Source: a virus. From it: a stretch of DNA of 64,000 nucleotides. Shown piece after piece: positions 3,958 to 58,513 of the stretch. Location of the stretch: the IMG/VR virus record IMGVR_UViG_3300023296_000874, positions 31,594 through 95,593 of that record, one strand, 5' to 3'. Both the position numbers and the translations under genes were made by a program. The notes below the pieces were generated by a model that saw nothing but the letters and a program-made list of their open reading frames with translations, made no database searches and was not told the DNA's origin. Numbering within the stretch: the first letter of the stretch is position 1; each line of letters starts with the position of its first letter.

Positions 3958-4254
3958 TCAGTCATCCTCAAACAGCACGAAGGGCTGCCAGTCAGCGGCG
4001 TGGAACTTGGAGTGAAGGGTCTGTTCGTAGCAGGGAGGGCTACAGCGCCCACACCTGCCGCTCGTCACCCACACCTTGTAGACACCAGGCTTGGTGAACT
4101 CAAAGTCGGTGAAGTCTGCGTAGTGGTCAATGCTGCGGAAATCAGCCTTGGAGCTGAAGCGGTAGAGCCGGTGCTCGCCTGTCTGCAAGCTGTCGTTCTC
4201 CCAATCTTCCTCGTCTTCGTTGGTTTCCCACGAGCTGTCGTACAAGGGCTTCAC
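3958..4254 (-). CDS. Hypothetical protein, acidic termini (C-terminus ...FVLFEDD)
   Basis: ORF track. Confidence 0.45.
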   Translation of the reverse strand: MKPLYDSSWETNEDEEDWENDSLQTGEHRLYRFSSKADFRSIDHYADFTDFEFTKPGVYKVWVTSGRCGRCSPPCYEQTLHSKFHAADWQPFVLFEDD

Positions 4255-4612
4255 GATGTGCTCCCGTACTTGCGCTGAAGGGTGGCGAGCTGGCTACGCT
4301 CACGGCGCTCCTCGGCTTTCTTCTGGTCAGCCGCACGCTGCTCCCTCTCCTCTTGTGCCTTGCGCTCACGGGCCTCTCTCGCGACGTGAGCACGCTGCAT
4401 GTCGTGGTCGAGCAGGTCAGCGATGCTGATGTACTCGGTACGGGTCTCGGGTCCACAACAGGAGCACTGGTACTCCTGAGTGGTCAGCGTGGCTCCACCC
4501 TCGTCAATCTCGTCGATGTCCCAATAGGCAGGGAACTCACTGTCGACGTCGTGGCGTGTGCGGGTGTAGCTCTGGATGAGAGTGTCGAGATCGGAGGCGG
4601 CTTGGAACATCG
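4251..4612 (-). CDS. Hypothetical protein with a CSCCG motif and a Lys/Glu/Arg-rich C-terminal tail. Start revised to MFQAASD
   Basis: The ORF-track N-terminus overlaps the upstream gene (ends 4640). An internal ATG at 4610-4612 is preceded by that gene's stop. Confidence 0.5.
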
Positions 4613-4639
4613 CCTCGAGCTGGGCTTCGGTGTGGATGC

Positions 4640-5278
4640 TCACTTCGCACCTCCACTCAGAGCCTGCCGAATGGCCTGGCTGTCGAGATCCTCTTCGAGG
4701 AGCATCTCGAGGCGCTGCATGTTGCCGGGGTTGCCGAGGATCGCGTTGGCGGCTGCTGCCGCTCCAGTACCACAAGCCTCGTTCAACCGGCCACGGAGGG
4801 CGTACTCATCGTCGCACCCGTCGAGCAACTCCTCGAGCTTGGCGCTCTTCATGGAGGCACGGGCAAGCTGAGCTGCGGTACGTCCGAAGGCTTGGCGCAC
4901 TTGCTCACGGATGAGCTCGCGCATCTCGGTCTTGATCCACTGTTCGTTCGCGATCGTGCTCAAGGAACCCCACCGGCTACCGATCTCTCGGGTCAGCTTG
5001 TCCTTGGCAGCCTTTTCGGCATCCTTCGTGGCTTGGGAGATCGCGTCGGTGGTGGCGGTGTTGATCCGCTTGGTGGCTTCGGCAACGGCCTCCGTGCGGA
5101 GGGTGCGAAGCTCGGAGCGCGCCTCGGAGCTCTCAGCGAGGGTTTCGTTGCGGTAGTCCGCACCGATGTCCTTCTTGAGTTCGTCCCAGAACTGGCGGCT
5201 CTTACAGAGGTTGGCAGAGATGTCGGCGGCAGCGAGAGTTTCGATCTTGTCGCTGTCGAGGGTGAAGTTGGCGTCCAT
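4640..5278 (-). CDS. Hypothetical coiled-coil protein
   Basis: 212-aa ORF. Promoter-motif copy 5409-5438 lies ~130 nt upstream. Confidence 0.6.
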   Translation of the reverse strand: MDANFTLDSDKIETLAAADISANLCKSRQFWDELKKDIGADYRNETLAESSEARSELRTLRTEAVAEATKRINTATTDAISQATKDAEKAAKDKLTREIGSRWGSLSTIANEQWIKTEMRELIREQVRQAFGRTAAQLARASMKSAKLEELLDGCDDEYALRGRLNEACGTGAAAAANAILGNPGNMQRLEMLLEEDLDSQAIRQALSGGAK

Positions 5279-5408
5279 TTTGAAGTATCCGTAGTAGTGA
5301 GTGAAGGTGTAGCTTGTGAAAACTGCACGATCCTCTACGGAGGCTTCTTGTGGGGTCCTTACGTCTCTGCGATCCGGGTCATTGGTCTGCCTCTTGTTGT
5401 GTCCCCTC

Positions 5409-5438
5409 TAACGGGGAGCGGCACTCAGAAGTTAGAGG
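5409..5438 (-). promoter_or_regulatory. Promoter-like motif TAACG-N17-GTTAGAGG (palindromic variant CCTCTAACG...GTTAGAGG)
   Basis: Motif family. Confidence 0.45.
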
Positions 5439-5461
5439 CCGTTCACGAAGTTCGAACTCTT

Positions 5462-5716
5462 TCAGGGTAGCGCGGCGATCTCTTCATCGTTCAGGAAGAG
5501 GCTGCACCCGTCAGAGTCCCACCCGAGCTTCCGAAGCGCCTCTTCGGTCTCAAGGTGGATGGTCACACGGTCCTCAAGAGAGCCACCCGCTATGAAGGCG
5601 TGGATCCTGTCGGAGTGTTGGCCCGCGTCGGAAGGGTCGTCGGGGTCGCGCTGAACGCACTCCGCTCCAATGCCTTCCTTGCACCGTGGGCAAGCAATGT
5701 GGTCTGAAATCGGCAT
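5462..5716 (-). CDS. Small Cys-containing protein (CPRC...C), putative zinc ribbon
   Basis: MPISDHIACPRCKEG...AECV. Confidence 0.45.
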   Translation of the reverse strand: MPISDHIACPRCKEGIGAECVQRDPDDPSDAGQHSDRIHAFIAGGSLEDRVTIHLETEEALRKLGWDSDGCSLFLNDEEIAALP

Positions 5717-5938
5717 CTATCCCTCAGCCACCGCGCCACTGATGAGCACGATGGGACACAGGTTGCACTGCTTGATGTTCACTATGTCACCTTCAGGCCC
5801 GAAGTTGATCTCCCAGCGAGTGCCCGTGGGCTCCGCTACGACACGACGTTGGCTGATGGCGCTGAAGTGGTGTACGCCGGTCCGCTTGAGTTCTTCGGCG
5901 GTCCAGTGATGGCCGCATCCTTGGCATGTAGTGGTCAT
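5717..5938 (-). CDS. Small zinc-ribbon-like protein (CQGCGHHW ... CNLCP)
   Basis: Two CxxC pairs. Confidence 0.5.
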   Translation of the reverse strand: MTTTCQGCGHHWTAEELKRTGVHHFSAISQRRVVAEPTGTRWEINFGPEGDIVNIKQCNLCPIVLISGAVAEG

Positions 5939-5956
5939 GGTCTCTCAAACAAGCTG

Positions 5957-6229
5957 TCAGGCTGAAGGTTGCGTGCCGCCCGGCTTTTCTTGCTCCACCA
6001 GCTTGTAGTGCTTCATGTTCGTCATGAAGTTGTTGTAGAGAGCCCAGTTGTCCTGCTTGGACTTGATAAGGGTTCGCTCTTTCATCCGCTTGATCAAACC
6101 GGCAATCTCGGGCCTTGTGAGTGGCCGGTCGAAGTGCGTCTGCGCCGCCATGACGTTTCCGAAGATGATGGCGTTGATTGAGCGTGCTGATTTGAACGGC
6201 GACGGGCCGCTGATCCAGAAGGTTTTCAT
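5957..6229 (-). CDS. Hypothetical protein
   Basis: ORF track. Confidence 0.45.
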   Translation of the reverse strand: MKTFWISGPSPFKSARSINAIIFGNVMAAQTHFDRPLTRPEIAGLIKRMKERTLIKSKQDNWALYNNFMTNMKHYKLVEQEKPGGTQPSA

Positions 6230-6307
6230 CGTTTTCTACTCCCTGTTGGTCGTAGAACGTGTGAACCTCCATGAGATCGGCGAACCCGGTTCGCGGTCAT
6301 ACTGGTT

Positions 6308-8059
6308 TCAGGCTGCAGCCGCCGCCACACACTGCTCGGGGTACCACTTGCGGAGCGTGTTGAGGAACTGGTAGCTGAGTTGGTCAGCGGGGCGTCGGCT
6401 CTTCGCCATGCCGGAGGCAACCACCGCAGCGGCAATCCGCTCCACGTCGGCTTCCGTCCACGCGCCTTGGGTCACGAGGGTCACCCAGATGCTGTGGTTG
6501 ATGCCGCGCCTGTAGGGGTTCTCACCCTTCAGGAGGTAGGAGGCAGAGGCCGGGTCAACAGCCGCAACGGGCGGGGCAGCAACCGGCTTGTCGCCGTCCA
6601 CTTCCTTGTAGAGGCCCGCGTAGTCCTTGAGGTTGTTGTAGAACTGGTACCCGATCTGGTCAGCGGGTCGCCGGGTCTTGATCGTGCCCGCGTCAATCAA
6701 CTGCTGAGTCACCGCGTCCACGTCGTCCCGTGTCCACGTACCCAGCGCAACCAACGCAGCCCAGATGCTGAAGTTGATGCCCCGTCGGTACGGGCTCGCT
6801 CCACAGAAGGCGTAGCGCACGGGCGTCGGCACGTTCACCGCGAGGCCTGTGATCACGGTCGCACGGGTCACCGCTGCTGCAACCACGTCACCCGGCATCA
6901 CCGGGTTCTCTTCGGCACGCTCGATGGCCTTGTAGCCACGGGCGGTCTCGATGAACCCCCAGGCAATGCCGTCAGCCGGGCGTCGGGATTTGATCGCGCC
7001 GCTGTCGAGCAGTGCGTCCACCGTGGTCAGGAGGTCGTTGAAGTCGAAGGTGCCACGGGTCACGAGGGCGTCGTAGATGGGGTGGCTACCTGCCCAATGC
7101 TTGTACGGGTTCGGGATGCCTACGAAGCGGTAGCGTGTGCGCGCAGCGTGCTGAACTGCGCGGCCCCCTCGGGTATTACCGTTGGGGGCCGCTGTCTCTC
7201 CGATTGCTTCCTTCTCAAGTGCCACTGCCACGAAGGTTCCAGCTACCTCTTCGGGGCTGCGGCGGGAGGCGAACTTGCCTTGATCCATCAGTCGCCCGGT
7301 GATCACCACAATCTCCCGCATCGTCACTGGGTTCCCGATGGCGTTCAGGGTGTCCCACAACACGTAGCACGAGCCTCGCTGGAAGGGGTTGTCGCCCTTC
7401 ACGAGGTACACCGGGCCGACGGAGGTGCTTGTGCGCTTCCGCTTGCTCGGCTTGGCTCCGTCCCTGGTCACCGCGAGGTACTCGGTGATGAGGGCGTGGA
7501 GGCTCTTCACGCGGTAGTGGATGGTCTCCTTGCGCTTGCCGATGATCCGGCTGATGTCTGCCGGGCGGTAGCCCATGGTCCGCAGGATGAAGGTGGGGAG
7601 GAACGCGGGCTTGCGCTCCGCGATGTACCGAATGAGATCCGATTCCACCACCTCTGCCGGAATGCTGAGCTCCGAGAGGTTGCTGGTCTGCTGCAACCGG
7701 TCGAGGTCCACCGTGCCGCGAGCGGGCTCGGAGTCGTCCGAGGGCACCGAGAGGCTCATGGCGTTGGTGTTGGCGTCCCGGTTGTCCTTCTTCCAGCCGT
7801 TCACGAGGCAGTTCCGGATGGTCGTACCGAGGTACGAACGGAACTGACGCGGAGTCATCAGCCCCGCATCTACCTTCTCCTTCACACGGGGGAAGAAGTT
7901 GGACGCCATGCAGTGAATGATGATGTCCTGGAACTTGTCGTCGATGTCCTCTTCGGGAACCTTCTGTCCACGCAGTCCACCGATGATGTACTTGCGGAAT
8001 GCCATGAGCTGGTTGACGTCCGTCGGGACGAAGTCCGTCTCGGTGTGTGTGCGTGCCAT
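6308..8059 (-). CDS. ECF-type sigma factor domain (regions 2 and 4) fused to a ~370-aa C-terminal extension of four tandem ~65-aa repeats
   Basis: Region 2.x-like FRSYLGTTIRNCLVNGWKKDNRD (cf. FxxWLxxIARNxxIDxxRK). Region 4-like LPTFILRTMGYRPADISRIIGKRKETIHYRVKSLHAL. Four repeats NP[YF][RQ]RG[IS]...W..LV..G.WT..DV......L..SG..K[ST]RRPADQ..YQF. Own promoter-motif copy 36 nt upstream. Confidence 0.7.
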   Translation of the reverse strand: MARTHTETDFVPTDVNQLMAFRKYIIGGLRGQKVPEEDIDDKFQDIIIHCMASNFFPRVKEKVDAGLMTPRQFRSYLGTTIRNCLVNGWKKDNRDANTNAMSLSVPSDDSEPARGTVDLDRLQQTSNLSELSIPAEVVESDLIRYIAERKPAFLPTFILRTMGYRPADISRIIGKRKETIHYRVKSLHALITEYLAVTRDGAKPSKRKRTSTSVGPVYLVKGDNPFQRGSCYVLWDTLNAIGNPVTMREIVVITGRLMDQGKFASRRSPEEVAGTFVAVALEKEAIGETAAPNGNTRGGRAVQHAARTRYRFVGIPNPYKHWAGSHPIYDALVTRGTFDFNDLLTTVDALLDSGAIKSRRPADGIAWGFIETARGYKAIERAEENPVMPGDVVAAAVTRATVITGLAVNVPTPVRYAFCGASPYRRGINFSIWAALVALGTWTRDDVDAVTQQLIDAGTIKTRRPADQIGYQFYNNLKDYAGLYKEVDGDKPVAAPPVAAVDPASASYLLKGENPYRRGINHSIWVTLVTQGAWTEADVERIAAAVVASGMAKSRRPADQLSYQFLNTLRKWYPEQCVAAAAA

Positions 8060-9344: not shown

Positions 9345-9365
9345 GGCACCTCCGTTACCTCATGA

Positions 9366-11702: not shown

Positions 11703-12098
11703 CTACGCTTCAAGAAGCAGCTCGATCCGGTCCACGTCAGTTTCGTTCCACGGGTTGATGTCCACGTCTTGAATCAGACGCCACCTACGCGGAGGCCAGT
11801 TGGTGGCGACACGTCCATAGTCGCAGCCACCTTCATCGTTGCGCTCAAACGTGTAGATGTTCCGGGCGGTTACGCACGCTCCAGTCCGATAGGACCCAGA
11901 GGGAGCCACGTGAGTCACAATGCCGTAGCCTTCACCGTATCCGGTCCCCATGAACCACATCTGTCCGGGGCGGGGTAGGTCGGTGAACTCAGGAGCGCGG
12001 GAGCAGAGCTCGAACCTCTCTTGAGGCATGGCGTCCCGGTGCTTGTTGCAGAACACACAGGTCCAATCTGTCGATCGGATGTGGTGGGGTCCTCTCAT
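11703..12098 (-). CDS. Hypothetical protein; C-terminus ...VDRIELLLEA (recurrent terminal motif)
   Basis: ORF track. Confidence 0.5.
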   Translation of the reverse strand: MRGPHHIRSTDWTCVFCNKHRDAMPQERFELCSRAPEFTDLPRPGQMWFMGTGYGEGYGIVTHVAPSGSYRTGACVTARNIYTFERNDEGGCDYGRVATNWPPRRWRLIQDVDINPWNETDVDRIELLLEA

Positions 12099-12897: not shown

Positions 12898-13269
12898 TCA
12901 TCCTTCCATCAGTAGTGTCATCCTATCAGGATGAGACGCTTCTTGAGCGCGGTTCGCGGCTACGAGATAGTGAGCGTAGTCGCCGCCAGCCCTCTCGATG
13001 ATTCCAACCCAATCGCCGTGATAGATCACAGCCGCCCTTCGGTACGCCTCATCCTTCTTCATGAGCCGGGTGACTGTACCGGGAACGGTGCGCCACTCGC
13101 AGCTCTCGGGTCCGGTGTCCCACCTACACTCAATCCGAAGGTTGAGCAGGTCCTCGTGACCCATGTGAGCGTAGCGGTTGCGGATGATCACCCGGACGAT
13201 GTTGTTCGCCCCCCGGATGTGCCAACGCTTCTCGGTGATGTCAGGATTCTCAGGTAAGTCCAAGGGCAT
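12898..13269 (-). CDS. Hypothetical protein; C-terminus ...PDRMTLLMEG (recurrent terminal motif). Start uncertain (13269 or 13296)
   Basis: ORF track; upstream gene ends 13250. Confidence 0.45.
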   Translation of the reverse strand: MPLDLPENPDITEKRWHIRGANNIVRVIIRNRYAHMGHEDLLNLRIECRWDTGPESCEWRTVPGTVTRLMKKDEAYRRAAVIYHGDWVGIIERAGGDYAHYLVAANRAQEASHPDRMTLLMEG

Positions 13270-13498: not shown

Positions 13499-13729
13499 TC
13501 AAACCTCCATCAACAGTTCAAGACGGTCGACGGGGTCAGCCCACCCTATGAACTCCCAGCCGTGCTCATAGTTCCCCATGGGCAGGTCACCTACGCACCA
13601 GTAGTCACCGTTCGCATCCCTAATCCGAGCACCGAAGTTCTCGGGATAGGTCAACACGACTGTTCCGGTAAGGTCGTGCCATGGTCCCACGAAGTGAATG
13701 ATCATGCCCACCTCAGGTCCACGCTCCAT
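13499..13729 (-). CDS. Hypothetical protein; C-terminus ...VDRLELLMEV (recurrent terminal motif)
   Basis: ORF track. Confidence 0.5.
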   Translation of the reverse strand: MERGPEVGMIIHFVGPWHDLTGTVVLTYPENFGARIRDANGDYWCVGDLPMGNYEHGWEFIGWADPVDRLELLMEV

Positions 13730-14167
13730 TCAGTCCTCCTCGTCGTCAGCGAACAGCATCTTCAGCCTGAAGGCGTTGCCGTCCCGACATGCGGTACAGA
13801 GGCCTTCACCATCGTCCATGAAGGTCGTGCCGCACTTGCACTCGTTGATCTCGAGTCTTGTGGATCGGGCAGCACGTAGACGTGGCTCGAAGGGGTGCTT
13901 GTTGTACGGGCCTGGCTTCCACTCAGAGTCTCCGCACTCGTGCTTGTCAGAGTTGAAGATGGTCTCGTTGCAGAGCTCACACTCCCTGACGTTGATGCCT
14001 ACCGCCGTGCGGATCTGATAGAACTTCTGGCACTTGCCGCAGTACCCGTTCTCCACGTCGCCGGGTGACCATGAAGTCATCTTGCAGACGCCACAAAGGA
14101 TAGCCTGCCCATCCTCAACGATTGTCATCCAATCGTCGTAGGGCTGCCGTCCCAGAGATTGCACCAT
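13730..14167 (-). CDS. Cys-rich protein with multiple zinc-ribbon-like CxxC pairs. Start revised to MVQSLGRQ
   Basis: CGVC..CGKC..CELC..HEC..CKC..CTAC. The ORF-track N-terminus overlaps the upstream gene. Confidence 0.5.
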   Translation of the reverse strand: MVQSLGRQPYDDWMTIVEDGQAILCGVCKMTSWSPGDVENGYCGKCQKFYQIRTAVGINVRECELCNETIFNSDKHECGDSEWKPGPYNKHPFEPRLRAARSTRLEINECKCGTTFMDDGEGLCTACRDGNAFRLKMLFADDEED

Positions 14168-18730: not shown

Positions 18731-18988
18731 TCAATCCTCGAGTAGTAGCGCGAGCCTGTCCACTTCTTGTACAGGTGGTTCAACAACCTCAGGAGCCAGT
18801 TCGCGCGGTTCGTAATAGCCCGTCGTCCCGTCGTCATGACGGACGGTGAACACCGCGCCGTGCCCGTTCTTCAATCGGGTGATAATTCCGTACACGCCCC
18901 ACTTCCTCGAGAGGAGTGCTTCGGGCATCCAGTCATTCGATATGGACTCAGGGCGCACGGTGAGCACGCGGTCGTTCACGGCAATCAT
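18731..18988 (-). CDS. Hypothetical protein; C-terminus ...VDRLALLLED (recurrent terminal motif)
   Basis: ORF track. Confidence 0.5.
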   Translation of the reverse strand: MIAVNDRVLTVRPESISNDWMPEALLSRKWGVYGIITRLKNGHGAVFTVRHDDGTTGYYEPRELAPEVVEPPVQEVDRLALLLED

Positions 18989-19407
18989 ACTCCAATCTCC
19001 AGGTATGGGTTCTGAGGATCATTCGTGTTGGTGATGGCGATGATGCCGTCCAAATCTCTGAAAATGGTAGCCATCACTTCGTCGTAGGTGTTCCGGTTGA
19101 TGATCTGGTCCCTGTGCTTGAGGCACTGACCCTCCGCGAGGAGGATGTCAGGGGTGTACCGCTCCATGGTGGAGGGCCTCCTGTCCAAGACGAGGAGCAG
19201 CCTCTTGTCCTCGTTGTTCGCCAGTTCGCGCCACCGAAGCAGGTACGCTGACCGGACCTGGTACATGGACAGCAACGAGGTCATTTCGACGTTGAGGTCT
19301 GCCCTTGCAGCCTCGGTAGCTGCAAGGGTTTGCATGGCTCCTTCTGACACCCCCTCTTCCGGAGGGGGGTCAATCTCAAGTAGGAGGTGAAGCCTATCGA
19401 GAGCCAC
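18985..19407 (-). CDS. Hypothetical protein. Probable GTG start giving N-terminus VALDRLHLLLEIDPPPEEG (motif shared with 1198/1712 paralogs); alternative ATG at 19335
   Basis: The ORF-track N-terminus overlaps prs. GTG at 19405-19407 immediately precedes the DRLHLLLE motif. Confidence 0.4.
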   Translation of the reverse strand: MALDRLHLLLEIDPPPEEGVSEGAMQTLAATEAARADLNVEMTSLLSMYQVRSAYLLRWRELANNEDKRLLLVLDRRPSTMERYTPDILLAEGQCLKHRDQIINRNTYDEVMATIFRDLDGIIAITNTNDPQNPYLEIGV

Positions 19408-20380: not shown

Positions 20381-20393
20381 GTTGGTTCTCCTT

Positions 20394-21645: not shown

Positions 21646-22155
21646 TCAGATGTGTCGCATGGTGTCAGTGTTGCGGCGCTTGGCTTCCGCCTCGTTGAAA
21701 TCCCGGTTGCGCCAACTGAACTCGTAGATGCTGAGGCGGCGCTTCTTCTCGTTCTGTCCATCAGGCTGGATGGTCACCGTCTTGTTGGTGATGCCCGTGA
21801 TGGTGCCGATGTAGCTGAGGTTGTAGCTGTGGTACTCGGCTCGGTCACCCACATGGAAGGTGCGGCGGTACTCAGCGGCCCCGTCTACGCGGTTGGAGTT
21901 GATGCCGTGTAGGCGGATGAAGGTGTACTCGTCCACGTAGGCGTGATGGCCTTCAGCCACTTCACCCACGATCATCACCCCACCGCTGCGCCGATTCTTG
22001 GCCCGCACGTTGTAGATCTGGTACAGGCCGAGCTTGCGGCTGACGGTCAACATGCGGTGAGCGGGGTCGGCGCACTCTGCTGCTTCGGTGCGTCCGGCAA
22101 CCTCGTTGTCGCGGTCGTCGTCATCATCCATCAGCAGTGCAAGTCGGTCGATCAT
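21646..22155 (-). CDS. Hypothetical protein; N-terminus MIDRLALLMDDDDD (recurrent terminal motif)
   Basis: ORF track; promoter-motif copy 20 nt upstream. Confidence 0.55.
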   Translation of the reverse strand: MIDRLALLMDDDDDRDNEVAGRTEAAECADPAHRMLTVSRKLGLYQIYNVRAKNRRSGGVMIVGEVAEGHHAYVDEYTFIRLHGINSNRVDGAAEYRRTFHVGDRAEYHSYNLSYIGTITGITNKTVTIQPDGQNEKKRRLSIYEFSWRNRDFNEAEAKRRNTDTMRHI

Positions 22156-33497: not shown

Positions 33498-33526
33498 TTG
33501 GGTCCGTTCCTTGGGTCGTTGTCCGT

Positions 33527-33556
33527 AGTGCTCCCCCAACGCATCACGCGGGGGAG
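33527..33556 (-). promoter_or_regulatory. Promoter-like motif CAACG-N17-CTCAGAGG
   Basis: Motif family. Confidence 0.45.
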
Positions 33557-33572
33557 CACTCAGAGGTTTTCT

Positions 33573-36212: not shown

Positions 36213-36527
36213 TCAGAGGTATTTCGGGTCCTGCCACCAGTCCTGGCTTTCCAAATCAAGCATCTCGTAGAGGCGGTCTGGAAGTTCCGACAGCCCTTCC
36301 TCCCTGAACCACTCCCCACGCCACCGAATGCGGTAGCTGCGAAGTCGCCCATGGATGTAGAACTCGGTGGGTCCCTCTTTGGGGACGAGCAGGATGACCT
36401 TCAGCGTGTAGGGGTTCCCGGTCTGAAGCTCGTTGAGGCGGCGCTCAATGTCCTTGGTGCGTCCGATCTTCACCACCCCGGTCACCGCCGCTTGGATGAT
36501 GTACAGGTCCTCCCCAAACGATTTCAC
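36213..36527 (-). CDS. T5orf172/GIY-YIG-like domain protein
   Basis: LYIIQAAVTGVVKIGRTKDIERRLNELQTGNPY matches the T5orf172 (MUG113) signature. Confidence 0.6.
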   Translation of the reverse strand: MKSFGEDLYIIQAAVTGVVKIGRTKDIERRLNELQTGNPYTLKVILLVPKEGPTEFYIHGRLRSYRIRWRGEWFREEGLSELPDRLYEMLDLESQDWWQDPKYL

Positions 36528-37480
36528 AGGAAGAACGGGCTCTCCTCTACTACCGGCTGAGCAGGCAGGAGGAAAGAGACGTAGCGGGGTGAGGGGTCGA
36601 ACGGATTGAACTTGCGCTTGTAGGTCGCGTTGAAGCCATGCTTGCCACCTTCACCGATGGCTACTCCATCAGCTACGTGGGTCACACCCTGTCGCGCCAT
36701 GTCGGCAAAGCAGTCGTGTTGAGCCCATGCACTCAGGTTCGGTATGCCTCTGTCACATGCCATGCCTGTCGTGTGGCCCCAGCACGTTTCTGTCATGGGT
36801 TGGTTGAGGTGGATCACGAGCGGCTCTCCGTCAATGCGGTAGAGCCGGTTGATGCCGTCCTCGTAGTGCCGGTCGAGAATGTACTCGTATTTCCGGTAGT
36901 TGATGTTCATGCCGCCGCGCTCCTTGGACTCCTTGACCCAACGCTTCATCACCGCGCGGGCCTCCTCCAGGTTTCCGGAGTCGATGGGCTCAGCCGTGTA
37001 GCCGGTGGTGGTCCGCTTGAAGGCGTTGATGTCAGCTCGGAGGCGACGCCACTTCTTTCCAGAGAGTGTGTCGATCCCTGCAATGTCGTAGGTGTACTCG
37101 CCGTACTCACTGAATTTCCCAGGAGTGAGCTTGACGCCCTCTGCCATGAAGGCCGCAGCGATATCAGCGGCCCAGGAGGCTGGGACGTTCTCAATCTTGA
37201 GGTTCTTGTCCGTGCTTCCCTTGTACGCCTGCCACCACGCAACCAACTCGGGAATGACTGCGTCCTTGTCACCGTAGGCTCGGTAGACACGGTAGTATTT
37301 CCCGTACTTCACACTGAAGAGGAGAAGCGTGTCCTCGCTGACGACCTTGTTGCCCTTGAACACTCCGTGGTTGATGAACCCGTAAGTGTAGGGGAGGCAG
37401 TCGGTCATTGTAGCTACACCGTCCATACGTGAACGGATGAAGGGGATGTCTGCCGTGGTCAGCGGGGTAGTTTCACTCAT
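36524..37480 (-). CDS. FemABX/MprF C-terminal (DUF2156)-like tandem-GNAT protein, paralog B (tentative aminoacyl-tRNA-dependent transferase)
   Basis: GKKWRRLRADINAFKR (cf. GKKYKxLRxxxNRFxR of DUF2156/Fem), YYRVYR, TCWGHT, RQGVTHVADG. Paralog of 38198..39166. Confidence 0.45.
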   Translation of the reverse strand: MSETTPLTTADIPFIRSRMDGVATMTDCLPYTYGFINHGVFKGNKVVSEDTLLLFSVKYGKYYRVYRAYGDKDAVIPELVAWWQAYKGSTDKNLKIENVPASWAADIAAAFMAEGVKLTPGKFSEYGEYTYDIAGIDTLSGKKWRRLRADINAFKRTTTGYTAEPIDSGNLEEARAVMKRWVKESKERGGMNINYRKYEYILDRHYEDGINRLYRIDGEPLVIHLNQPMTETCWGHTTGMACDRGIPNLSAWAQHDCFADMARQGVTHVADGVAIGEGGKHGFNATYKRKFNPFDPSPRYVSFLLPAQPVVEESPFFL

Positions 37481-38216
37481 CGAAGAGGCTCATGTATTCG
37501 TGGTCATCACCACCCAAGATGTCCGGGTGGATCAGGCGCTCGGGAACGTCGGGAGCTTCTGCGCCGCCTGAGGTCTCCCGGTGAAGGTAGAAGGGCCGGT
37601 TGTACTTGAGAACCGTCGTAGGGAGGAAGTCCCTCGGGCCTGTGTAGTAGAAACCGTCCACGCCGGTAGATGCAGCGATGGCTGCTTCCATGCGCGGGTC
37701 AAGAGTGGCAACCGGAATGCCCTGGCTCTTGAACTTGAGCGTGATGACTGCGTAGCCCTTCTCGGCCTTGGCGTTCAAGAGGTCGAACAGCATCCCAACG
37801 TCTTCGGGTCCGGTGGTGGTGAACAGCACGCCGCAAGAGAGGACGAAGTCCCACGTCGGGGCCTTGTTCAGCTCTTCCCAGTAGTTCCCGATGCGGAAGT
37901 CGTACTCCGGCACTCGGGTTCGGGCGTCCAGCACGTTGGCAGGGACGATGTCGAACCCTTGGTACTTCAGCTCGGGCCTCTGGTCGCGTAGCATCTCAGC
38001 CAGCGTGCCCGTGCCGCACCCACACTCGAGAATGGAGGTGGCGTTGGCTGGGATCAGGTCGATGAGGCCCTGCCAATGAGCAACCATGTCCTCGGGAGAG
38101 TACTTGTACCACTTGAAGCGGGTGGTGTCGTCAGGGTCCTCGTACTTCCCGGCTGACCGAGTGTAGGAGTCCCGCCAACGGAGGATCGTTTCATCTGCTA
38201 CTGGAATGGAAGACAT
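37473..38216 (-). CDS. Class I SAM-dependent methyltransferase
   Basis: Motif I ILECGCGTGTLAEML. Sits between the two paralogs. Confidence 0.75.
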   Translation of the reverse strand: MSSIPVADETILRWRDSYTRSAGKYEDPDDTTRFKWYKYSPEDMVAHWQGLIDLIPANATSILECGCGTGTLAEMLRDQRPELKYQGFDIVPANVLDARTRVPEYDFRIGNYWEELNKAPTWDFVLSCGVLFTTTGPEDVGMLFDLLNAKAEKGYAVITLKFKSQGIPVATLDPRMEAAIAASTGVDGFYYTGPRDFLPTTVLKYNRPFYLHRETSGGAEAPDVPERLIHPDILGGDDHEYMSLFDE

Positions 38217-43092: not shown

Positions 43093-43093
43093 C

Positions 43094-43906: not shown

Positions 43907-43909
43907 CCA

Positions 43910-48833: not shown

Positions 48834-49658
48834 TTAGAAAGCCACGGCGGTCACCCCATCAAGGATGAAAGCGTAGCGGAAGGTCAACCCTACCACTGCT
48901 GGGTCCCCAGGCCGCTCAGGGTCCTGGCTTTGTACGCTCGGTCCGTCCATGCAAAGCCACCCCAATCCATCCACTATAGTCACAGGACACCCTACCAGCG
49001 AGACAGTGCGAATGCCTCGATACATATCGAGACCCGTACCAAGGTTCGATAGGTCTTGCACCTCACGAACCATCAGGGCGTTGAGCAGTCCGGGGTCGCC
49101 TACGACGCGTGCTCGGTCGTGGTCGCGAATGTTCATCCAGGCCTCGTTGAAGGTGCCGGGGACGGAGATTGCGGTGAGCTGCTCGTAGTATGCCTCCTCA
49201 AGCTCCCTGTCCATCATAGAGCGCGCCAGGCTGAGTGCTCTGTCGATCGCCTCCATGCTTCGGTCACGTCGCACTTCATCGGTGATCTCTACTGGGATGG
49301 TGCGGGTGATGACCGGGGTCACTACGCGCTCACTGCTTTCGTCAGTGAGGACGCGGTGGGTGATGAACTCCTGCTCCAGAGGGGAGATGTTCCGGACCAT
49401 GATGTTGGTCAGGACGGGAGACCGTGACTGTTCGGTGTTGCCCGACCACACGCTCTGGTCTTCGTGGAGGTAGTCTGCTACCTCAGCCGTGAAGCTACCG
49501 CTGGTCCCGCCGCTGAAGTCAGCCGCGTCGTCGTAGTAGGCTACGAGGTTGGACTGCCCTCGAAGCCGTGAGCTTGGCTCCGGTGGTGTTGGAGCTTTGG
49601 GTGGTTGTGGCGGTGGTTGCCACACTCCCAGCAGTAGTTCAAGCTTCGGATGTGCCAT
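48834..49658 (-). CDS. Hypothetical protein (Pro-rich N-terminus; start uncertain)
   Basis: ORF track. Confidence 0.45.
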   Translation of the reverse strand: MAHPKLELLLGVWQPPPQPPKAPTPPEPSSRLRGQSNLVAYYDDAADFSGGTSGSFTAEVADYLHEDQSVWSGNTEQSRSPVLTNIMVRNISPLEQEFITHRVLTDESSERVVTPVITRTIPVEITDEVRRDRSMEAIDRALSLARSMMDRELEEAYYEQLTAISVPGTFNEAWMNIRDHDRARVVGDPGLLNALMVREVQDLSNLGTGLDMYRGIRTVSLVGCPVTIVDGLGWLCMDGPSVQSQDPERPGDPAVVGLTFRYAFILDGVTAVAF

Positions 49659-52934: not shown

Positions 52935-53425
52935 TTCCTCTTCTTGCCGGGGATGCGGATGGTGGCATTCTTGCCCACCTTCGCGTCAATAGCACCCGAA
53001 AAGTCCACACTCCATGGGTCCTGCTCAGGCGTCTCCCATTCCTTGTGCATGGTCGCAGCGGTAGGCGCTGACCAAGGGTCCTTCGGGCGCTGTGCGGCTT
53101 TCTGGGCCTTGTCGAGGTCATCAACCGCCGCGTCTACCTTTACGGAGGGCTCTACCACTGTGTCGGGGTCTGCGCGGTGTACGATCTCGTCCGGGTAGTT
53201 CGACAGCGGACTGAGTGGTTGTTCAGCCTCGGGATCTACGAACTCAAGGAGGTGCTCGTGTCGCTTGATCTTCGCCTGTGTGGCGTTGTCGGTGTAGCCC
53301 GAGCGGAAACATCGGTTGTTGACGCACCCTTGGGTACAGACGACAGCCACAAACTCGTCGATGTTGACCTTGCTTCCGGGGTTGCATTCCCCCATCAAGT
53401 CAACCTGGCCTCTTAGAGTCCCCAT
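52931..53425 (-). CDS. Hypothetical protein (Cys motifs GECNPGS...CTQGC)
   Basis: ORF track. Confidence 0.5.
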   Translation of the reverse strand: MGTLRGQVDLMGECNPGSKVNIDEFVAVVCTQGCVNNRCFRSGYTDNATQAKIKRHEHLLEFVDPEAEQPLSPLSNYPDEIVHRADPDTVVEPSVKVDAAVDDLDKAQKAAQRPKDPWSAPTAATMHKEWETPEQDPWSVDFSGAIDAKVGKNATIRIPGKKRK

Positions 53426-56001
53426 TCAACCGCCTTGTACTGGAAGTACTGTGAGTCCACCCTGATTTCACGGGTGGCGTTCAGCACGGCTCCCGTCTCA
53501 CTCTTGAGTACGAGCTTCGTGGTGCCTGAACCGGTCAGGATGAACAGAGCCTCGAGCTTCCGGAGCTTGTTCTTCGTGTACGGTCCGCACACTACGTATT
53601 CAAGCACCTCATCACCGGATGCAACAGTGGGAACCTCCTGAACCGGCTCCGGCTCCGCTTCCGGTGCGCTTCCGGAAGCTTCCGGTGCGGGCGCTGACGT
53701 CTCCACGTTCTCTGGAGTAGGTGGAGGAGTGGAAGCTTCCGGTGCGCTTCCGGATACTTCCGGAGCAGCAGGCGTCGGTGGTGCCTCACCTGCGGGCGTC
53801 GGGTCCTGGTCAGGTCCGTTGTAGGTGCGTCCGTCAAAGTAGAGGTCTCCGGGGTGCAGGGGCTTCACACCTTCTCGCAGACACTTCAGTACGGGAGCGG
53901 GCGGCTTCCATGCGTTGTTCGCTTCGCCCCAGTTCGATCCCCACTCGATGTCCACGGTCAGCGGGATCTTCCACCCCTTCGGTCCGCAGCGGCTCATTAC
54001 CAGGCCCAGCTCAGGCATGATGATGAACTTCATGCTGTCCCGCACCTCGAACACGATTTCATCGTGTACGGTGAGGAGGATGCGGCAGTCCTCGCGCCAG
54101 CCATTCCTCTCGATCAGCTTGTCGCACATCACCATCGCGATCTTCGTGATGTCTGCCGACGTACCCTGAACCACCGTGTTCACGGAGGTGCGCTCACCGA
54201 ACGAGCGGAGGCGCTTGTCGTCCTCCAACATCTCGGGGATCAGCCGGATGCGCCCGAACGAGGTCTTCACCATCTGGGTCTTGGCGGCTTGCGAGTGCTG
54301 CTTCTTGATCCACCGCTTGATGCCCGGCAGGTTGTCGAGGAAGCTCTTCTGGATGCGGTAGCCCTCATCCTCGGGGACGCCAATGTTGCGCGCCAGCGTC
54401 TTGCCACCGGCTCCGTAGAGGATGCCGAAGTTGACGCCCTTGCTCTTGCCACGGTACGGCTCTTCAGAGGTGCCGAACACCGCCACACTGGTCTGGGAGT
54501 GAATGTCCCCTACCTTCTCGTGACAGTAGGGGCAGTGATGCCATAGCGGGCTGTTGCCGATGATCTCGTAGTCGTCGCCGTACTTCTTCTTGCACTCGTT
54601 GTGGTTGAACTCGGTCACCCATTTCGACTCACCGCTCTGGTTGCCCGCAATGCGGAGCTCAACACCAGCGAAGTCGATCGCGGCAATGACGAAGCCGTCT
54701 CGAGCAATGAACCCCTTGCGGATATTCGGCTTGCCCTTCTTGACTTTCGGTACCGCCTGTGCGTTGACGCCCGTGTACCCCTGGTCGGAGCGTCCACCGG
54801 GAGCAGCAAACCGCCCAGTAGGAGCGCCACAAGCCATGATGCCGAAGCGGCCGTCGTTGAACTGGTCGACGTTGTTGATGAGGTTGTTGAGGTAGGTGCC
54901 GCGCAGCTTGAGGAGCTGTCGGTACTTCACCACCATCGTCAGAGCGGGATACTTGCCCTTGTACTTGGAGTCCAACTCCTCGAGCGTGCCCGCGTCTGTC
55001 TTCCACTGCGCGCCGCTGGGTGTCTTGCCCGCGTTGGGGACGCTGAGCTTGTCGAACAGGGCCTCACCGAGTGCCTTGGCACTCCCGATGTTGAGCTCGC
55101 TGTCGCCTACGAGCTTCCGGATGTCGGTCTCCATCTGCTCCGCTTCGAGCTTCAGTCCGTCATCCAAGCCCTGAAGGTAGTCAACGTCAATGCGGAACCT
55201 GTTGCGGCTCATGCGGCGCAAGACTCCAATCAACATCTTCTCGATCTTGTAGATCGTGCCCTGAGCCTTCAGGTTGAGGTTGTCCTTGTAGAGGTTCCAG
55301 AGGTGCCAGGTGCAGATGCCGTCACCGGAGGCATACACGTAGGCTTCCTCGGGGTGCAGCTCCTCGAACTGAGGGATCTTGGTCCCCTTGGGGAACAGGC
55401 TCTTGAACTCGATCATCTGCCAACCGAGAATGTCCTTGCTCTGCGACTTGAGGCCGATCCGCTTCCTGTTGCTGTCTACCAGCCAACCCATGACCTGCGT
55501 GTCGTCGAACTTGTCGGGCTGCTCCGGTACGTTGAAGCCCTCGCCCCACATCATCTCCGTGTCGAAGGTGGCGTTGTGGTAGATGCAGATGCAGTTGTCG
55601 AGTAGACGCTGGATCTGCTCAGCCACCGGCTTCCACGGGAGGTTTCCGTTGTCCGGGTTGGAGATGCTGTCGTGAGCGGAAACGTGCCTGACGGGCGCGT
55701 AGAAGCCGACCTCACCGTCGTAGCAGAGAGCGAACCCTACGATGTGGTGGACGGGTCTACCGCCTTCCAAGGGGTGTCCTCCGTAGACACGGGTATCCAG
55801 CCCCTGGGTCTCGAGGTCGATGACCACCGCGCCGGATGCAATAGCAGCATCCACCACTTCGGTCAGCACCGCGAGATCGTCGATCAGTACGAAGGCCTTC
55901 TCCTGCATCCATGGCTGGATGGCCTCTTCACTGAGCCCGCCTACGGCATTACCAAAGGGGTCGAATTGGACTTCAATGCCCTTCTTCCATTCACGAGCCA
56001 T
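53413..56001 (-). CDS. polA: Family-A DNA polymerase (Pol I-like) with 3'-5' exonuclease domain and an unusual ~155-aa C-terminal extension (Pro/Ala/Glu-rich linker plus small domain)
   Basis: Exo I VVIDLETQGLD. Motif B RGKSKGVNFGILYG. Motif C LTVHDEIVFE. C-terminal PTPAGEAPPTPAAPEVSGSAPEAS... followed by a ~65-aa globular tail. Confidence 0.9.
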   Translation of the reverse strand: MAREWKKGIEVQFDPFGNAVGGLSEEAIQPWMQEKAFVLIDDLAVLTEVVDAAIASGAVVIDLETQGLDTRVYGGHPLEGGRPVHHIVGFALCYDGEVGFYAPVRHVSAHDSISNPDNGNLPWKPVAEQIQRLLDNCICIYHNATFDTEMMWGEGFNVPEQPDKFDDTQVMGWLVDSNRKRIGLKSQSKDILGWQMIEFKSLFPKGTKIPQFEELHPEEAYVYASGDGICTWHLWNLYKDNLNLKAQGTIYKIEKMLIGVLRRMSRNRFRIDVDYLQGLDDGLKLEAEQMETDIRKLVGDSELNIGSAKALGEALFDKLSVPNAGKTPSGAQWKTDAGTLEELDSKYKGKYPALTMVVKYRQLLKLRGTYLNNLINNVDQFNDGRFGIMACGAPTGRFAAPGGRSDQGYTGVNAQAVPKVKKGKPNIRKGFIARDGFVIAAIDFAGVELRIAGNQSGESKWVTEFNHNECKKKYGDDYEIIGNSPLWHHCPYCHEKVGDIHSQTSVAVFGTSEEPYRGKSKGVNFGILYGAGGKTLARNIGVPEDEGYRIQKSFLDNLPGIKRWIKKQHSQAAKTQMVKTSFGRIRLIPEMLEDDKRLRSFGERTSVNTVVQGTSADITKIAMVMCDKLIERNGWREDCRILLTVHDEIVFEVRDSMKFIIMPELGLVMSRCGPKGWKIPLTVDIEWGSNWGEANNAWKPPAPVLKCLREGVKPLHPGDLYFDGRTYNGPDQDPTPAGEAPPTPAAPEVSGSAPEASTPPPTPENVETSAPAPEASGSAPEAEPEPVQEVPTVASGDEVLEYVVCGPYTKNKLRKLEALFILTGSGTTKLVLKSETGAVLNATREIRVDSQYFQYKAVEWGL
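53658..53754. repeat. 19-nt perfect direct repeat CTTCCGGTGCGCTTCCGGA (53658-53676 and 53736-53754) within the low-complexity linker-coding part of polA
   Basis: Exact match by eye; encodes the repeated SGSAPEAS peptide on the minus strand. Confidence 0.7.
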
Positions 56002-56469: not shown

Positions 56470-56548
56470 GCTCCATTTTACACTGGGATTAGGGCTCGAG
56501 CCGTGAAACAGAGGTCACATCAGTTCCATGACCCACGGAGGTCAATGA

Positions 56549-57442
56549 ATGTCTGAAGCCAATTCCACTGCGTTCCACCACAGCCCTGACGGCCACTGGG
56601 AATTCCACGACGGACGTGCGGTCTTTGAGAAGCTGCCCGCCAACCTGTACTCCCTGTCTACGGGGCGGTTCGGAGCTATTCATCTCGTACCCGCCACCAT
56701 GGAGGTAGACGAGGTGGTGCCCTTGCCGAACCCTCAGGCGCTCCGCGCCAAGACTCTCGCATCTCGCTTCCTTTCAGGGGAGTTCGATGAGAGCCTCAAG
56801 AGCATGGGCCTTCTGAAGAAGATGGCGATGTTGCTGTGGGGTGTGCCGGGGACAAGCAAGTCGGTGACGATCTTCGAGATCACCGGAGACGCCATCAGGA
56901 AGGGATGGATCGTCATCCGTGCCACCACGAACGTCGACCTACTGGTGGACGCCTTGCGCGCCATCCGTGCGGTTGAGCCGGATCGTGGCATCATGGTGAT
57001 CTGGGAAGAGTTCGAGGACGTAGTGACGCACCGGGAGGCTTCCTTGTTGGAGCTGCTCGACGGTGGGAACCAGATCCCCGGCGTCTTCTACATCATGACC
57101 ACCAACTACATCAAGATGATCCCGCCCCGGATCTTCCTCCGCATGAGGCGCATCCCCTTCCAGGTGGAGTTCATGTACCCCGGCGACGATGAGCGTCGTG
57201 CCTTCTTCAATGCGAAGATCCCCACCGCTCGCGCGGCAGAGATCGACGTAGAGGATTGGGTGATCAAGACGAAGGGCTTCAGCCTGGATCAATGCGCCCA
57301 GGTGATCCTCGCGGTGTTTGCTTTCCAGAGCACCATCGAGGCCGTCATTGAGGATCTCGCCTTGCGCTTGGCTGCCGTCGGTGCGGAAGATCCCGAAGCT
57401 GACGATGCCGAGGATGATGAGTACTACGAAGAGGATGAATGA
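56549..57442 (+). CDS. AAA+ ATPase with atypical Walker A (GVPGTSKS), acidic C-terminal tail
   Basis: Walker A LWGVPGTSKS, Walker B IMVIWEEFED, sensor-1-like MTTNY. Lone plus-strand gene, divergent from 56050..56469. Confidence 0.65.
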   Translation: MSEANSTAFHHSPDGHWEFHDGRAVFEKLPANLYSLSTGRFGAIHLVPATMEVDEVVPLPNPQALRAKTLASRFLSGEFDESLKSMGLLKKMAMLLWGVPGTSKSVTIFEITGDAIRKGWIVIRATTNVDLLVDALRAIRAVEPDRGIMVIWEEFEDVVTHREASLLELLDGGNQIPGVFYIMTTNYIKMIPPRIFLRMRRIPFQVEFMYPGDDERRAFFNAKIPTARAAEIDVEDWVIKTKGFSLDQCAQVILAVFAFQSTIEAVIEDLALRLAAVGAEDPEADDAEDDEYYEEDE

Positions 57443-57449
57443 GGGCCGG

Positions 57450-58187
57450 TTAGGAGTCCTTACGCTCCACCGGGAGTGTACTCCTGATGCCCCATGTGTT
57501 CTTCGCCCAGAAGGTCTCGAGTGCGAAGTAGCCGCCGAGCATGGTGATCTGGTACGTGAGAACGGGCACCCAAGGCACCGAGCCGAGTAGGGCGGTAAAC
57601 ACTCCCAGCATCACCACCGCGCTTGTTGTCCGGTACGTCAGGGCCTTGGCGGCGCTGCGCTTGGTCTCTACCTGATCGTCCTCGGTGATGCCGAAGTTGC
57701 TGTCGTGCCACAGGCGCTCATGCACCAGGCTGAAGAAGGTCATCATCACCGAGTAGCCGGTGAGCAGCCACAGGCTCAGTCCGAGCTTCCAAAGCACAAG
57801 GGAAAATACTCCGAGTGCGAGGGTGCGGTAGAGCAGCATCTTGGCTGCCGTCCGGTAGCCGGTGCTCATGGCGCTGCGGTCCGGTTCCCAAGGCACACGT
57901 CCACGGCACCGGTCGTAGGTGCGGAAGCCGAAGATGGCGATGGGGTACACGATGGGCTCACCGTGTAGGAGCAGCACGATGGGGATGAGCTCGGGGAGGC
58001 CGACGTTCCAGAGGATGATGGGGATCACCACGTCCTCGAACAGTTCCCACACCACGGCGAAGACGAAGAAGCGGGGGCCTTGGCTCTTGAGCAGCTTCTT
58101 GAGCTCGCGCCAAGTTTCGAAGATGTTGACCTTCTCCCAGATCTCTCCGGCAGCCCAGCACCATGCACGTCGTAGATGTTTCAGCAC
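57450..58187 (-). CDS. Polytopic membrane protein with two DUF2061-like repeats (KxLxYRT...LG). Start revised to a GTG with RBS GGAGG; the ORF-track TTG start lies upstream of the promoter motif
   Basis: AAKMLLYRTLALGVFSLVLWKLG and AAKALTYRTTSAVVMLGVFTALLG. Multiple TM helices. Confidence 0.55.
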   Translation of the reverse strand: MLKHLRRAWCWAAGEIWEKVNIFETWRELKKLLKSQGPRFFVFAVVWELFEDVVIPIILWNVGLPELIPIVLLLHGEPIVYPIAIFGFRTYDRCRGRVPWEPDRSAMSTGYRTAAKMLLYRTLALGVFSLVLWKLGLSLWLLTGYSVMMTFFSLVHERLWHDSNFGITEDDQVETKRSAAKALTYRTTSAVVMLGVFTALLGSVPWVPVLTYQITMLGGYFALETFWAKNTWGIRSTLPVERKDS

Positions 58188-58210
58188 TTCTGAACCTCCG
58201 TGTTGTACTG

Positions 58211-58240
58211 GAAACGCATCCAGTGTCCGGAAACTCAGAG
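58211..58240 (-). promoter_or_regulatory. Promoter-like motif AAACG-N17-CTCAGAGG upstream of the DUF2061-like membrane protein gene
   Basis: Motif family. Confidence 0.45.
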
Positions 58241-58246
58241 GTGTGG

Positions 58247-58513
58247 TCAATCGTCCTTGAAGAGCAGGTCGATGCGGTTGGAGGGCTGTACTTCCTCGAC
58301 ACCCTTGGCGGTGTCCTCAAAGGCCACTGAGAGGGTCACGTCGTAGGTGTTGACGTTGATGAGGTCTACGTCGTCCATCCGTGCAATCTTGGCTTCCATC
58401 CGTGCTACCGCAAGGGTGAGAGCCTGCTTGAGTGTGGTGCAACCCTCTTCAATCAGATTGCCGACGACCTCGTGGTCGATGTCGATGTGTAGCGTGATTT
58501 TACCGTGCGGCAT
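58247..58513 (-). CDS. Hypothetical protein; C-terminus ...NRIDLLFKDD (recurrent terminal motif)
   Basis: ORF track. Confidence 0.5.
   Translation of the reverse strand: MPHGKITLHIDIDHEVVGNLIEEGCTTLKQALTLAVARMEAKIARMDDVDLINVNTYDVTLSVAFEDTAKGVEEVQPSNRIDLLFKDD

Follow-up and report, generated by a model that had tools for sequence, protein, structure and literature searches.

A recurrent terminal peptide on small proteins of a huge phage and its relatives, probably a docking tag

The window and its terminal peptides

The 64,000-nt stretch of viral DNA analysed here (positions 31,594 to 95,593 of IMG/VR record IMGVR_UViG_3300023296_000874, hereafter the window) encodes a series of mostly small, fast-evolving proteins that carry the same peptide of 8–9 residues at one end, referred to below as the tag. 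About one tenth of the window genes have it, and most carriers show no detectable similarity to one another. The window has a G+C content of 60%, and nearly all of its 94 genes, as called in this analysis (19,573 residues), lie on the minus strand. The window belongs to a huge phage, as the longest metagenome contig on which its proteins recur has 257,533 bp; the nearest relatives in GenBank and IMG/VR are uncultured phages of 460–600 kb, with merely 30–54% protein identity. The sequence read comprised about 85 kb of this genome (the window plus flanks of about 20 kb, from a genome of at least 257 kb), about 21 kb of the related contig L010 and 2.8 kb of L108. For L105, database gene calls were used.

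The recognisable genes of the window include those for replication (PolA, a DnaB-like helicase, a primase-Zn-ribbon-like protein, SNF2 and TopoI), for translation or RNA repair (LysRS, polynucleotide kinase-phosphatase (PNK) and RlaP) and a group related to nicotinamide adenine dinucleotide (NAD), namely NAPRTase-like, PRPP synthetase, two isochorismatase-family and Nudix proteins. ClpP, SPFH, Cdc48/VAT-like AAA, YjoB-like AAA, R2K ATP-grasp and VWA-like proteins are also encoded. Pfam and PHROG annotation of the tag carriers returned essentially nothing.

The tag occurs in a long form, with the consensus [D/N/S/T]-[R/K]-[L/I/M]-x-L-L-[L/M/F/W]-[E/D]-[E/D/N/G], and a short form, [K/Y/W/P]-[F/M]-x-L-[F/W/M]-[E/D]-[E/D]. 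Most copies are C-terminal and end 0–3 residues from the stop codon, often with a Pro 1–4 residues upstream of the motif. The first motif residue is a typical helix N-cap, and positions 2, 5 and 6 would form an LxxLL-type face if the peptide is helical. The instances in the window are as follows (all on the minus strand; sequences given as C-termini are followed directly by the stop codon; aa, amino acids; ORF, open reading frame; PSSM, position-specific scoring matrix).

221..250 (−): tag NRTTLLFDEG, C-terminus of ORF 218..655 (145 aa)
3961..3984 (−): short-form tag PFVLFEDD, C-terminus of 3958..4254 (98 aa)
4688..4717 (−): near-terminal tag QRLEMLLEED in 4640..5278 (212 aa), with a score of 10.1 in the PSSM built from L010 only
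11706..11732 (−): tag DRIELLLEA, C-terminus of 11703..12098 (131 aa)
12901..12927 (−): tag DRMTLLMEG, C-terminus of 12898..13269 (123 aa)
13502..13528 (−): tag DRLELLMEV, C-terminus of 13499..13729 (76 aa)
13733..13771 (−): tag FRLKMLFADDEED, C-terminus of the Zn-ribbon protein 13730..14167 (145 aa)
18734..18760 (−): tag DRLALLLED, C-terminus of 18731..18988 (85 aa), the gene of which abuts the PNK start codon
19372..19398 (−): possible N-terminal tag (V)ALDRLHLLLEI of 18985..19407, present with the GTG start only
22114..22149 (−): N-terminal tag (MI)DRLALLMDDDDD of 21646..22155 (169 aa), a protein that starts MIDRLALLMDDDDD
37476..37496 (−): weak short-form candidate YMSLFDE, C-terminus of the methyltransferase 37473..38216
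58250..58279 (−): tag NRIDLLFKDD, C-terminus of 58247..58513 (88 aa)

An earlier examination of the same DNA (the original prediction) had quoted the termini of seven of these proteins, and all seven are present as described; database calls on independent contigs give the same ORFs. Four instances are additional to that list, those of 218..655, 13730..14167 and 4640..5278 and the short form of 37473..38216. ORF 218..655 has an L7/L12-CTD-like segment, and its paralogue (2..214) has no tag. In 4640..5278 the tag (QRLEMLLEEDLD) lies near the C-terminus, with 15 residues between it and the stop codon, or 16 if counted from the end of the scored 9-mer. ORF 58247..58513 is located between a primase-Zn-ribbon-like gene and a gene with multiple transmembrane segments, in the helicase/PolA cluster.

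Some of the weaker cases fared less well. ORF 36213..36527 (DRLYEMLDLE) was dropped, as its PSSM score is only 0.1, the sequence lies 14 residues from the end and the product is a MUG113/T5orf172 protein. The pair at 1198 and 1712 had been correctly recognised as paralogues (E = 7e-20) but has only a weak RL[DE]ELMG variant of the motif, with a score of about 4, and is not counted among the confident instances. The GTG start of 18985..19407 is plausible, with GAGG 6 nt upstream and a strict match to the motif expression, but the database caller begins this ORF at an ATG (19335).

The motif is more frequent at termini than composition predicts, and the case for it is stronger than first described. 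The regular expression R[LIMT].LL[LMF] has seven matches in the 19,573 residues, every one terminal: six end 2–3 residues before the stop codon and one begins at residue 4. In 2000 per-protein shuffles the mean was 0.30 matches, 0.015 of them terminal, and more than one terminal match was never obtained; the probability that seven of seven would be terminal under uniform placement is about 7e-10. Non-gene ORFs gave five matches in 78,259 aa, all internal to the ORF. To remove the circularity of an expression designed on the window itself, a PSSM was built solely from the L010 instances and then scanned over the window proteins. The top eight sites scored 8.9–10.6 and the next best 5.9; seven of the eight lie at extreme termini and the other is that of 4640..5278. 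The reverse scan, from window to L010, gave a like result.

The tag is also conserved as peptide rather than as DNA, as the original prediction had noted from differences in codon usage. Its Arg codons in the window are CGT, AGG, CGG, CGA and CGC, its Leu codons CTT, CTC, CTA, CTG and TTG, and the L010 copies are all written in AT-rich codons; since codons differ between copies, selection has been on the peptide. The motif is thus real, highly non-random, selected at the peptide level and conserved across lineages. Its Leu codons are skewed relative to the genome as a whole (CTA 21% vs 3.6%, CTT 26% vs 11%, CTC 16% vs 47%), and genome-rare Leu codons are enriched, for example at 18734–18760, 12901–12927 and 221–250. 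A foreign origin of the ORFans is one possible reason; another is that 3' ends close to the following start codon are relaxed or AT-biased.

Relatives, carrier proteins and neighbouring gene clusters

Contig L010, from groundwater and with a G+C content of 40.5%, was reached via PNK homologues. It is syntenic with the window over the genes for NAPRTase-like protein, RlaP, PRPP synthetase, a further gene (x), PNK, a VWA-like protein and isochorismatase, and the synteny continues through a Zn-ribbon protein, a 159-aa protein, Nudix, DUF1848 and a 583-aa protein. The shared proteins are 50–75% identical, and the tagged ORFs found between them are non-homologous. Long-form ends in L010 are TRLRLLMDENA, NRLELLTED, SRIELICED, TKIQLMWEK and TYFEMMFDGQT, and short-form ends TKFELFED, TYFELWED and DWFDLMNDSK; one protein is tagged at both ends, starting MNRLTLLWENN and ending SRLELLLEAL. 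The protein ending NRLELLTED adjoins PNK upstream, and thus occupies the slot held in the window by the protein ending DRLALLLED, yet the two are non-homologous. In L010 the tag is carried by 10 of the 19 genes that have no orthologue in the window, compared to one of the 15 that do (p = 0.008). Several of these carriers form a weak paralogous family. The description of the carriers as unrelated therefore applies to most of them, the exceptions being this family and the 1198/1712 pair.

The Zn-ribbon protein 13730..14167 is the single case of an orthologous family with the tag. Its L010 orthologue (44% identity) aligns NRRMALLFENDYDE with the tag, after which follows an extra Zn ribbon, and a similar arrangement is found in P0137 of L108, which represents a third lineage (56% G+C): DRRIMLLFEEDEP, then the extra ribbon. 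The motif is kept in all three lineages while the flanks diverge. It is therefore under purifying selection, and its conservation at an internal position in the orthologues of L010 and P0137 means that no free chain end is needed. These two internal copies also mean that the tag cannot be called strictly terminal, as it had been. The neighbours of P0137 on L108 end EQLELLMMGLE and DKRIRLLMEI, the latter at the contig end.

Beyond these lineages the tag was not found. About 100 PNK-anchored loci were collected from IMG/VR and JGI metagenomes, and genes were called on about 70 of them, giving about 300,000 aa from more distant huge phages. In these there was no terminal instance and only 2–3 internal matches, which is chance level. 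Absence from these loci indicates that the tag marks a subclade comprising the window, L010 and L108 types. Searches of GenBank phages, IMG/VR and GTDB genomes with megablast and tblastn gave no closer tag-bearing relatives, which came from raw metagenome contigs only.

Sister huge phages (L013, L014, L028 and L031) have another recurrent tail, on replication/recombination proteins adjoining a DnaN-like gene (in L013 at 2048–3925, 4676–5905 and 20054–20518). The endings include ILGIFEDPR, ILDMFETE, ILATFEKE, VLQELFG, VLTEMFG, LVGGILDD, IVDDLLDS and LDLLLADPK. This suggests that a lineage-specific terminal code of the type 'hydrophobic plus acidic' is general in this group of huge phages.

The tag has been gained in modular fashion, appended to otherwise conserved domains. 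Thirteen homologues of 21646..22155 have the C-terminal domain in common with it, and in these the N-terminal extension with MIDRLALLMDDDDD is missing; the homologues in phages L005–L008 are likewise without the tag. In the AlphaFold2 model of this protein, residues 41–169 have a predicted local distance difference test (pLDDT) score of about 90 and the first 40, including the tag, about 52 or less. The amphipathic helix of the original prediction is a deduction from the sequence, the model leaving this N-terminal tag unstructured on its own. The fold has no significant match in PDB, and only weak KOW/Tudor/SH3-like matches were seen. Five consecutive Asp residues follow the tag of this protein (22114–22149; MIDRLALLMDDDDDRDNE). 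Acidic stretches early in a chain are known to destabilise the ribosome that is translating it, and the start of 21646..22155 may also have a translational effect.

Further carriers are encoded in one flank of the window's genome, a DUF4419 enzyme that starts MSVVITDPSVESDSRLTLLWEDEK and a coiled-coil protein with PPDRMTLLLGVEEDEDG near its end. The latter has a hydrophobic N-terminal segment that is likely to be a membrane anchor. In all, membrane anchors are predicted for two tag carriers, and in both the tag would lie on the cytoplasmic tail. The structural-looking proteins of the other (right) flank are without the tag.

Embedded among the tagged ORFs is the 159-aa protein shared by the two phages (window 12415–12894, minus strand; L010 16442–16915). 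At 71% identity it is the second most conserved pair compared, and it has no match in Pfam, PDB or GenBank phages. It is a candidate for the partner of the tag.

Several other features of the window were noted. A dense set of NAD-related genes (14498–15229, 19394–20380, 28844–30415, 34356–35081, 35084–35743 and 9604–10182) encodes NAPRTase-like, PRPP synthetase, two isochorismatase/nicotinamidase-family and Nudix proteins, including an NrtR-like one, and L010 has in addition an NMNAT-like protein and an NAD synthase (522–1091 and 5551–6573). From their annotation, these genes look like a phage module for NAD+ salvage or reconstitution. A paralogous pair (36524–37480 and 38198–39166, minus strand) flanks the methyltransferase at 37473–38216, and both members match LPG_synthase_C, an aminoacyl-tRNA-dependent type of transferase; the same phage has its own LysRS (27224–28717). 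One cluster (31422–34262, minus strand) contains ClpP (229 aa), a DUF3228 protein, a 72-aa ORF and an SPFH/Band-7 protein, an arrangement reminiscent of cells, where stomatin is paired with a protease of the ClpP class (NfeD). The sole sizeable plus-strand block (41217–44431) has five genes, one with an SprT-like metallopeptidase motif, and may be an inserted cassette. For the 583-aa protein (6308–8059, minus strand; L010 20084–20968), which the two phages share at 60% identity, PHROG gave a weak match to an RNA polymerase sigma factor (E = 8e-5) and Pfam gave none.

Possible roles of the tag

The original prediction had proposed a shared docking or targeting tag, and this is probably the right class of explanation (we put it at roughly 0.7). 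Its core idea stands, in view of the peptide-level selection, the retention in three lineages of 40–60% G+C, the disordered tails and the non-homologous accessory proteins on which the tag is found. More specifically, the motif is read here as a modular short linear docking peptide, carried on the flexible tails of many accessory proteins in one subclade of huge phages; that related phages of very different base composition have kept it argues for a tag that addresses or docks its carriers to a single shared partner. The peptide would fold on binding, beginning with the N-cap and presenting a hydrophobic face of the LxxLL type between Arg and acidic residues, and would enter a hydrophobic groove of one conserved receptor. 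As phages of 40% and 60% G+C, presumably with different hosts, keep the same tag, this receptor would be either phage-encoded or a universally conserved host hub, and the tag would route or tether a changing repertoire of accessory proteins to it.

Several observations weigh against this proposal. The sequence read did not reveal the receptor, and docking is deduced from sequence comparison; the census of carriers likewise covers roughly 85 kb of this genome, with about 21 kb from L010 and 2.8 kb from L108. The window has no recognisable sliding clamp, and the PolA, DnaB-like helicase, TopoI and SNF2 encoded there are without the tag. Position 1 is R, K or Y and not the Gln that is important for beta-clamp binding. 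Finally, the two carriers with predicted membrane anchors fit poorly with any single precedent.

The hub itself can be assigned only tentatively. The foremost candidate, though a doubtful one, is a sliding-clamp-like DNA 'tool-belt' or other replisome hub that reads hydrophobic plus acidic tails: the peptide would dock in the hydrophobic cleft of a phage or host clamp, and the small proteins would ride on clamp-loaded, replicating phage DNA, as gp33 and gp55 do in T4. The clamp-binding hexapeptide Q-phi-x-L-x-L can be aligned with the long form, R-L-x-L-L-phi, and the pentapeptide Q-phi-x-L-F with the short form, phi-x-L-F; T4 gp55 (S-L-D-F-L-Y-E-A) and a window copy (R-I-E-L-L-L-E-A) are in the same register; and clamp-binding motifs are typically found at the extreme N- or C-termini of unrelated proteins. 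One carrier sits in the helicase-primase cluster, one L108 copy has Q at position 1, and near PNK three of the sister huge phages (L013, L014 and L028) have genes for a clamp loader and a divergent DnaN-like protein; the PDB matches of the latter protein in L013 are all beta clamps, though with weak E-values. These points are offset by the lack of a recognisable clamp in the window and its flanks of about 20 kb, the general lack of Gln at position 1, the untagged replication enzymes, the lack of canonical clamp-binding motifs (QLxLF/QLxLxL) at any window terminus, and the carriers themselves, which are mostly ORFans with no sign of action on DNA, two of them with predicted membrane anchors. 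Among proteins considered as clamp components, that of 395 aa (2687..3874) is not clamp-like, that of 245 aa (57450..58187) has multiple predicted transmembrane segments, and the 297-aa AAA considered as a clamp loader is YjoB/Cdc48-like instead. Rather unlikely is a cargo role, with the peptide loading variable small effectors into the procapsid or another phage-built compartment for co-delivery or sequestration. Here the tag marks lineage-specific, non-homologous ORFs between conserved genes, encapsulin targeting peptides are also terminal (usually C-terminal, occasionally N-terminal; PMC8346489), and the ORFan 48834..49658 has a weak HK97-capsid match in Pfam. That match is, however, below the Pfam threshold, no homologue of the protein was found and the AlphaFold2 model of it cannot be used; the copies are mostly C-terminal, where the capsid-targeting sequence (CTS) of T4 is N-terminal and cleaved; no similarity to the encapsulin consensus with its GSL core is seen; and the predicted membrane-anchored carriers, with the tag on the predicted cytoplasmic tail, argue against capsid loading as the sole role. 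The untagged structural-looking proteins of the right flank are neutral in this respect. The ORFan itself (48834–49658, minus strand; 263–274 aa, with a Pro-rich N-terminus) adjoins the Cdc48-like AAA at 49738–51324; its match is to Phage_capsid_4 (E = 0.0024), a search of 5.8 billion proteins returned only itself, and the single-sequence AlphaFold2 model has a pLDDT of 33.

Still less weight is given to a degron or adaptor-docking peptide, by which an unfoldase/protease adaptor as the hub would deliver (early) proteins for timed removal by the phage ClpP and Cdc48-like AAA or by Clp, Lon or FtsH of the host. Tags for AAA+ proteases typically lie at chain ends, the phage has genes for ClpP (2e-63), a Cdc48/VAT-like AAA (4e-42 to PDB 6chs) and a YjoB-like AAA, and heterogeneous carriers, including those with a predicted membrane anchor, would suit a turnover signal. 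The chains, however, end in ED, DD or EG, and acidic C-termini block recognition of the ClpXP type; the peptide is also found at N-termini and, in two orthologues, internally, which would suit a docking site better than engagement by the pore; and nothing ties the AAA proteins, ClpP or the SPFH protein to the tag. Both the acidic ending and the internal copies argue against a classical free-end degron. The rest of the probability for the hub lies with other partners or with self-association, the latter improbable, in which tags would bind each other or a complementary tag, as docking domains do, to give hetero-oligomers or a condensate with no dedicated receptor. Tags at both N- and C-termini, including the L010 protein tagged at each end, and a leucine-rich, helix-forming sequence that could bundle would fit, but with 8–9 residues the tag is very short to form a stable bundle of helices, a specific pocket of complementary charge is suggested by the conserved N-cap/Arg and the acidic end, and complementary 'plus' and 'minus' variants are not in evidence. 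Least probable is that the motif is no protein signal at all and marks either descent within one paralogous family or a Shine-Dalgarno sequence, promoter, repeat or similar DNA or RNA element where genes adjoin. In several C-terminal copies the final E/D/G codons do overlap a GAGG/GGAG-like ribosome-binding site of the next gene, and some L010 carriers are weak paralogues of one another. A DNA repeat, promoter or Shine-Dalgarno explanation is nevertheless largely refuted by the Arg and Leu codons, which vary freely, and by retention of the peptide at 40%, 56% and 60% G+C; moreover, N-terminal and internal copies keep the acidic residues after the core with no start codon nearby downstream, so these residues are part of the peptide and not a by-product of a downstream Shine-Dalgarno sequence. 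A single paralogous family is ruled out for most carriers, which are dissimilar outside the tag, and the homologues of 21646..22155 lack it.

A bolder form of the docking reading, which is tentative at best, is a previously undescribed 'address-tag' system, in which one 8–9-residue peptide, at either end of the chain, would route dozens of quickly replaced accessory proteins to one conserved receptor encoded by the phage. Carriers amount locally to about 10% of the window genes and about 30% of those in the L010 stretch. The receptor could then serve, for example, in capsid cargo loading for co-injection or as a phage-specific clamp or tool-belt marking phage DNA, and new effectors would become functional simply by gaining the tag. 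The genes of huge phages are mostly small ORFans of unknown role, and a portable tag would group a sizeable part of them into one pathway; the tag peptide would be a bait for the hub, and a search for the tag would yield its client list. If the hub is a clamp, the T4 'tool-belt' logic would extend to a much larger set of clients, and if it is the capsid or a compartment, this would be a natural cargo-loading system usable for engineering. The tag is in any case a practical annotation marker for this phage lineage.

Comparison with known systems

In sequence, the best match among known systems is the clamp-binding peptides. The C-termini of T4 gp43, gp55 and gp33 are 'hydrophobic and acidic' clamp-binding epitopes that are interchangeable, are joined by flexible linkers and also work when internal (PMC2988020); gp43 ends SLDFLFG and gp55 ends SLDFLYEAND (read from NC_000866). 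With these epitopes the tag shares its shortness, its mix of hydrophobic and acidic residues and its position at the very C-terminus of phage proteins that are unrelated and in part small. It is likewise portable, follows a divergent flexible linker and has a similar core register (L-[D/E]-phi-L-phi-E); it is found on non-homologous proteins, is missing from homologues and lies on a disordered tail. The differences are that T4 has three known carriers, all of them replication or transcription factors, while here there are a dozen or more, mostly ORFans; that an N-cap and Arg precede the core and N-terminal copies exist; that no gp45-type clamp was found in the sequence read; and that the polymerase, a carrier in T4, is untagged here (PolA, 53413..56001, ends KAVEWGL).

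Bacterial clamp-binding motifs comprise the pentapeptide and hexapeptide given above, the former as QL[S/D]LF, Gln 1 being important for binding. The tag has the same two length classes and the same hydrophobic spacing (aliphatic 2, Leu 4 and Phe 5 or Leu 6, as in R-[LIM]-x-L-L-[LMF] and [FM]-x-L-[FWM]), and both kinds of peptide lie at the extreme termini or in disordered regions of many unrelated proteins. Position 1 is occupied by R, K, Y, W or P in about 25 instances from three lineages, EQLELLMMGLE of L108 alone having Q, and the tag differs further in its obligatory acidic continuation and in carriers that are not known clamp clients. The tails of single-stranded DNA-binding proteins (SSBs), such as those of E. 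coli SSB (DDDIPF), T4 gp32 and T7 gp2.5, are also short, acidic plus hydrophobic terminal peptides that bind hubs in replisomes. There, one hub carries the tail and many clients read it, whereas here many proteins carry it, and the order of acidic and hydrophobic residues is the reverse of that in SSB.

In ssrA-like degrons recognised by ClpX at the C-terminus, the extreme end is non-polar (e.g. LAA-COOH) and must be free; the tag ends in E, D or G and has N-terminal and internal copies. The Family 1 targeting peptides of encapsulins (consensus SDGSLGIGSLKRS, with a (T/I)(V/G)GSL core) resemble the tag in being short and terminal after a flexible linker, mostly at the C-terminus and occasionally at the N-terminus, and direct unrelated proteins to one HK97-fold shell. 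GSL is absent from every instance here, encapsulin cargo genes are few and normally adjoin the shell gene, and no confirmed shell is present; encapsulin-type targeting is not supported.

In evolutionary pattern, the T4 CTS is the best match. Both are terminal peptides of about ten residues that form the only conserved part of hypervariable small accessory proteins encoded between conserved genes (PMC3012670 for T4), and both are transferable in principle. In T4 the CTS occurs at the N-terminus only, the prohead protease cleaves it off after a Glu, and its carriers are found in virions. The present tag is mostly C-terminal and has some copies that are internal or on proteins with predicted membrane anchors. 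A terminal docking peptide common to several phage proteins is thus of a known kind; what is unusual here is the number and diversity of its carriers.

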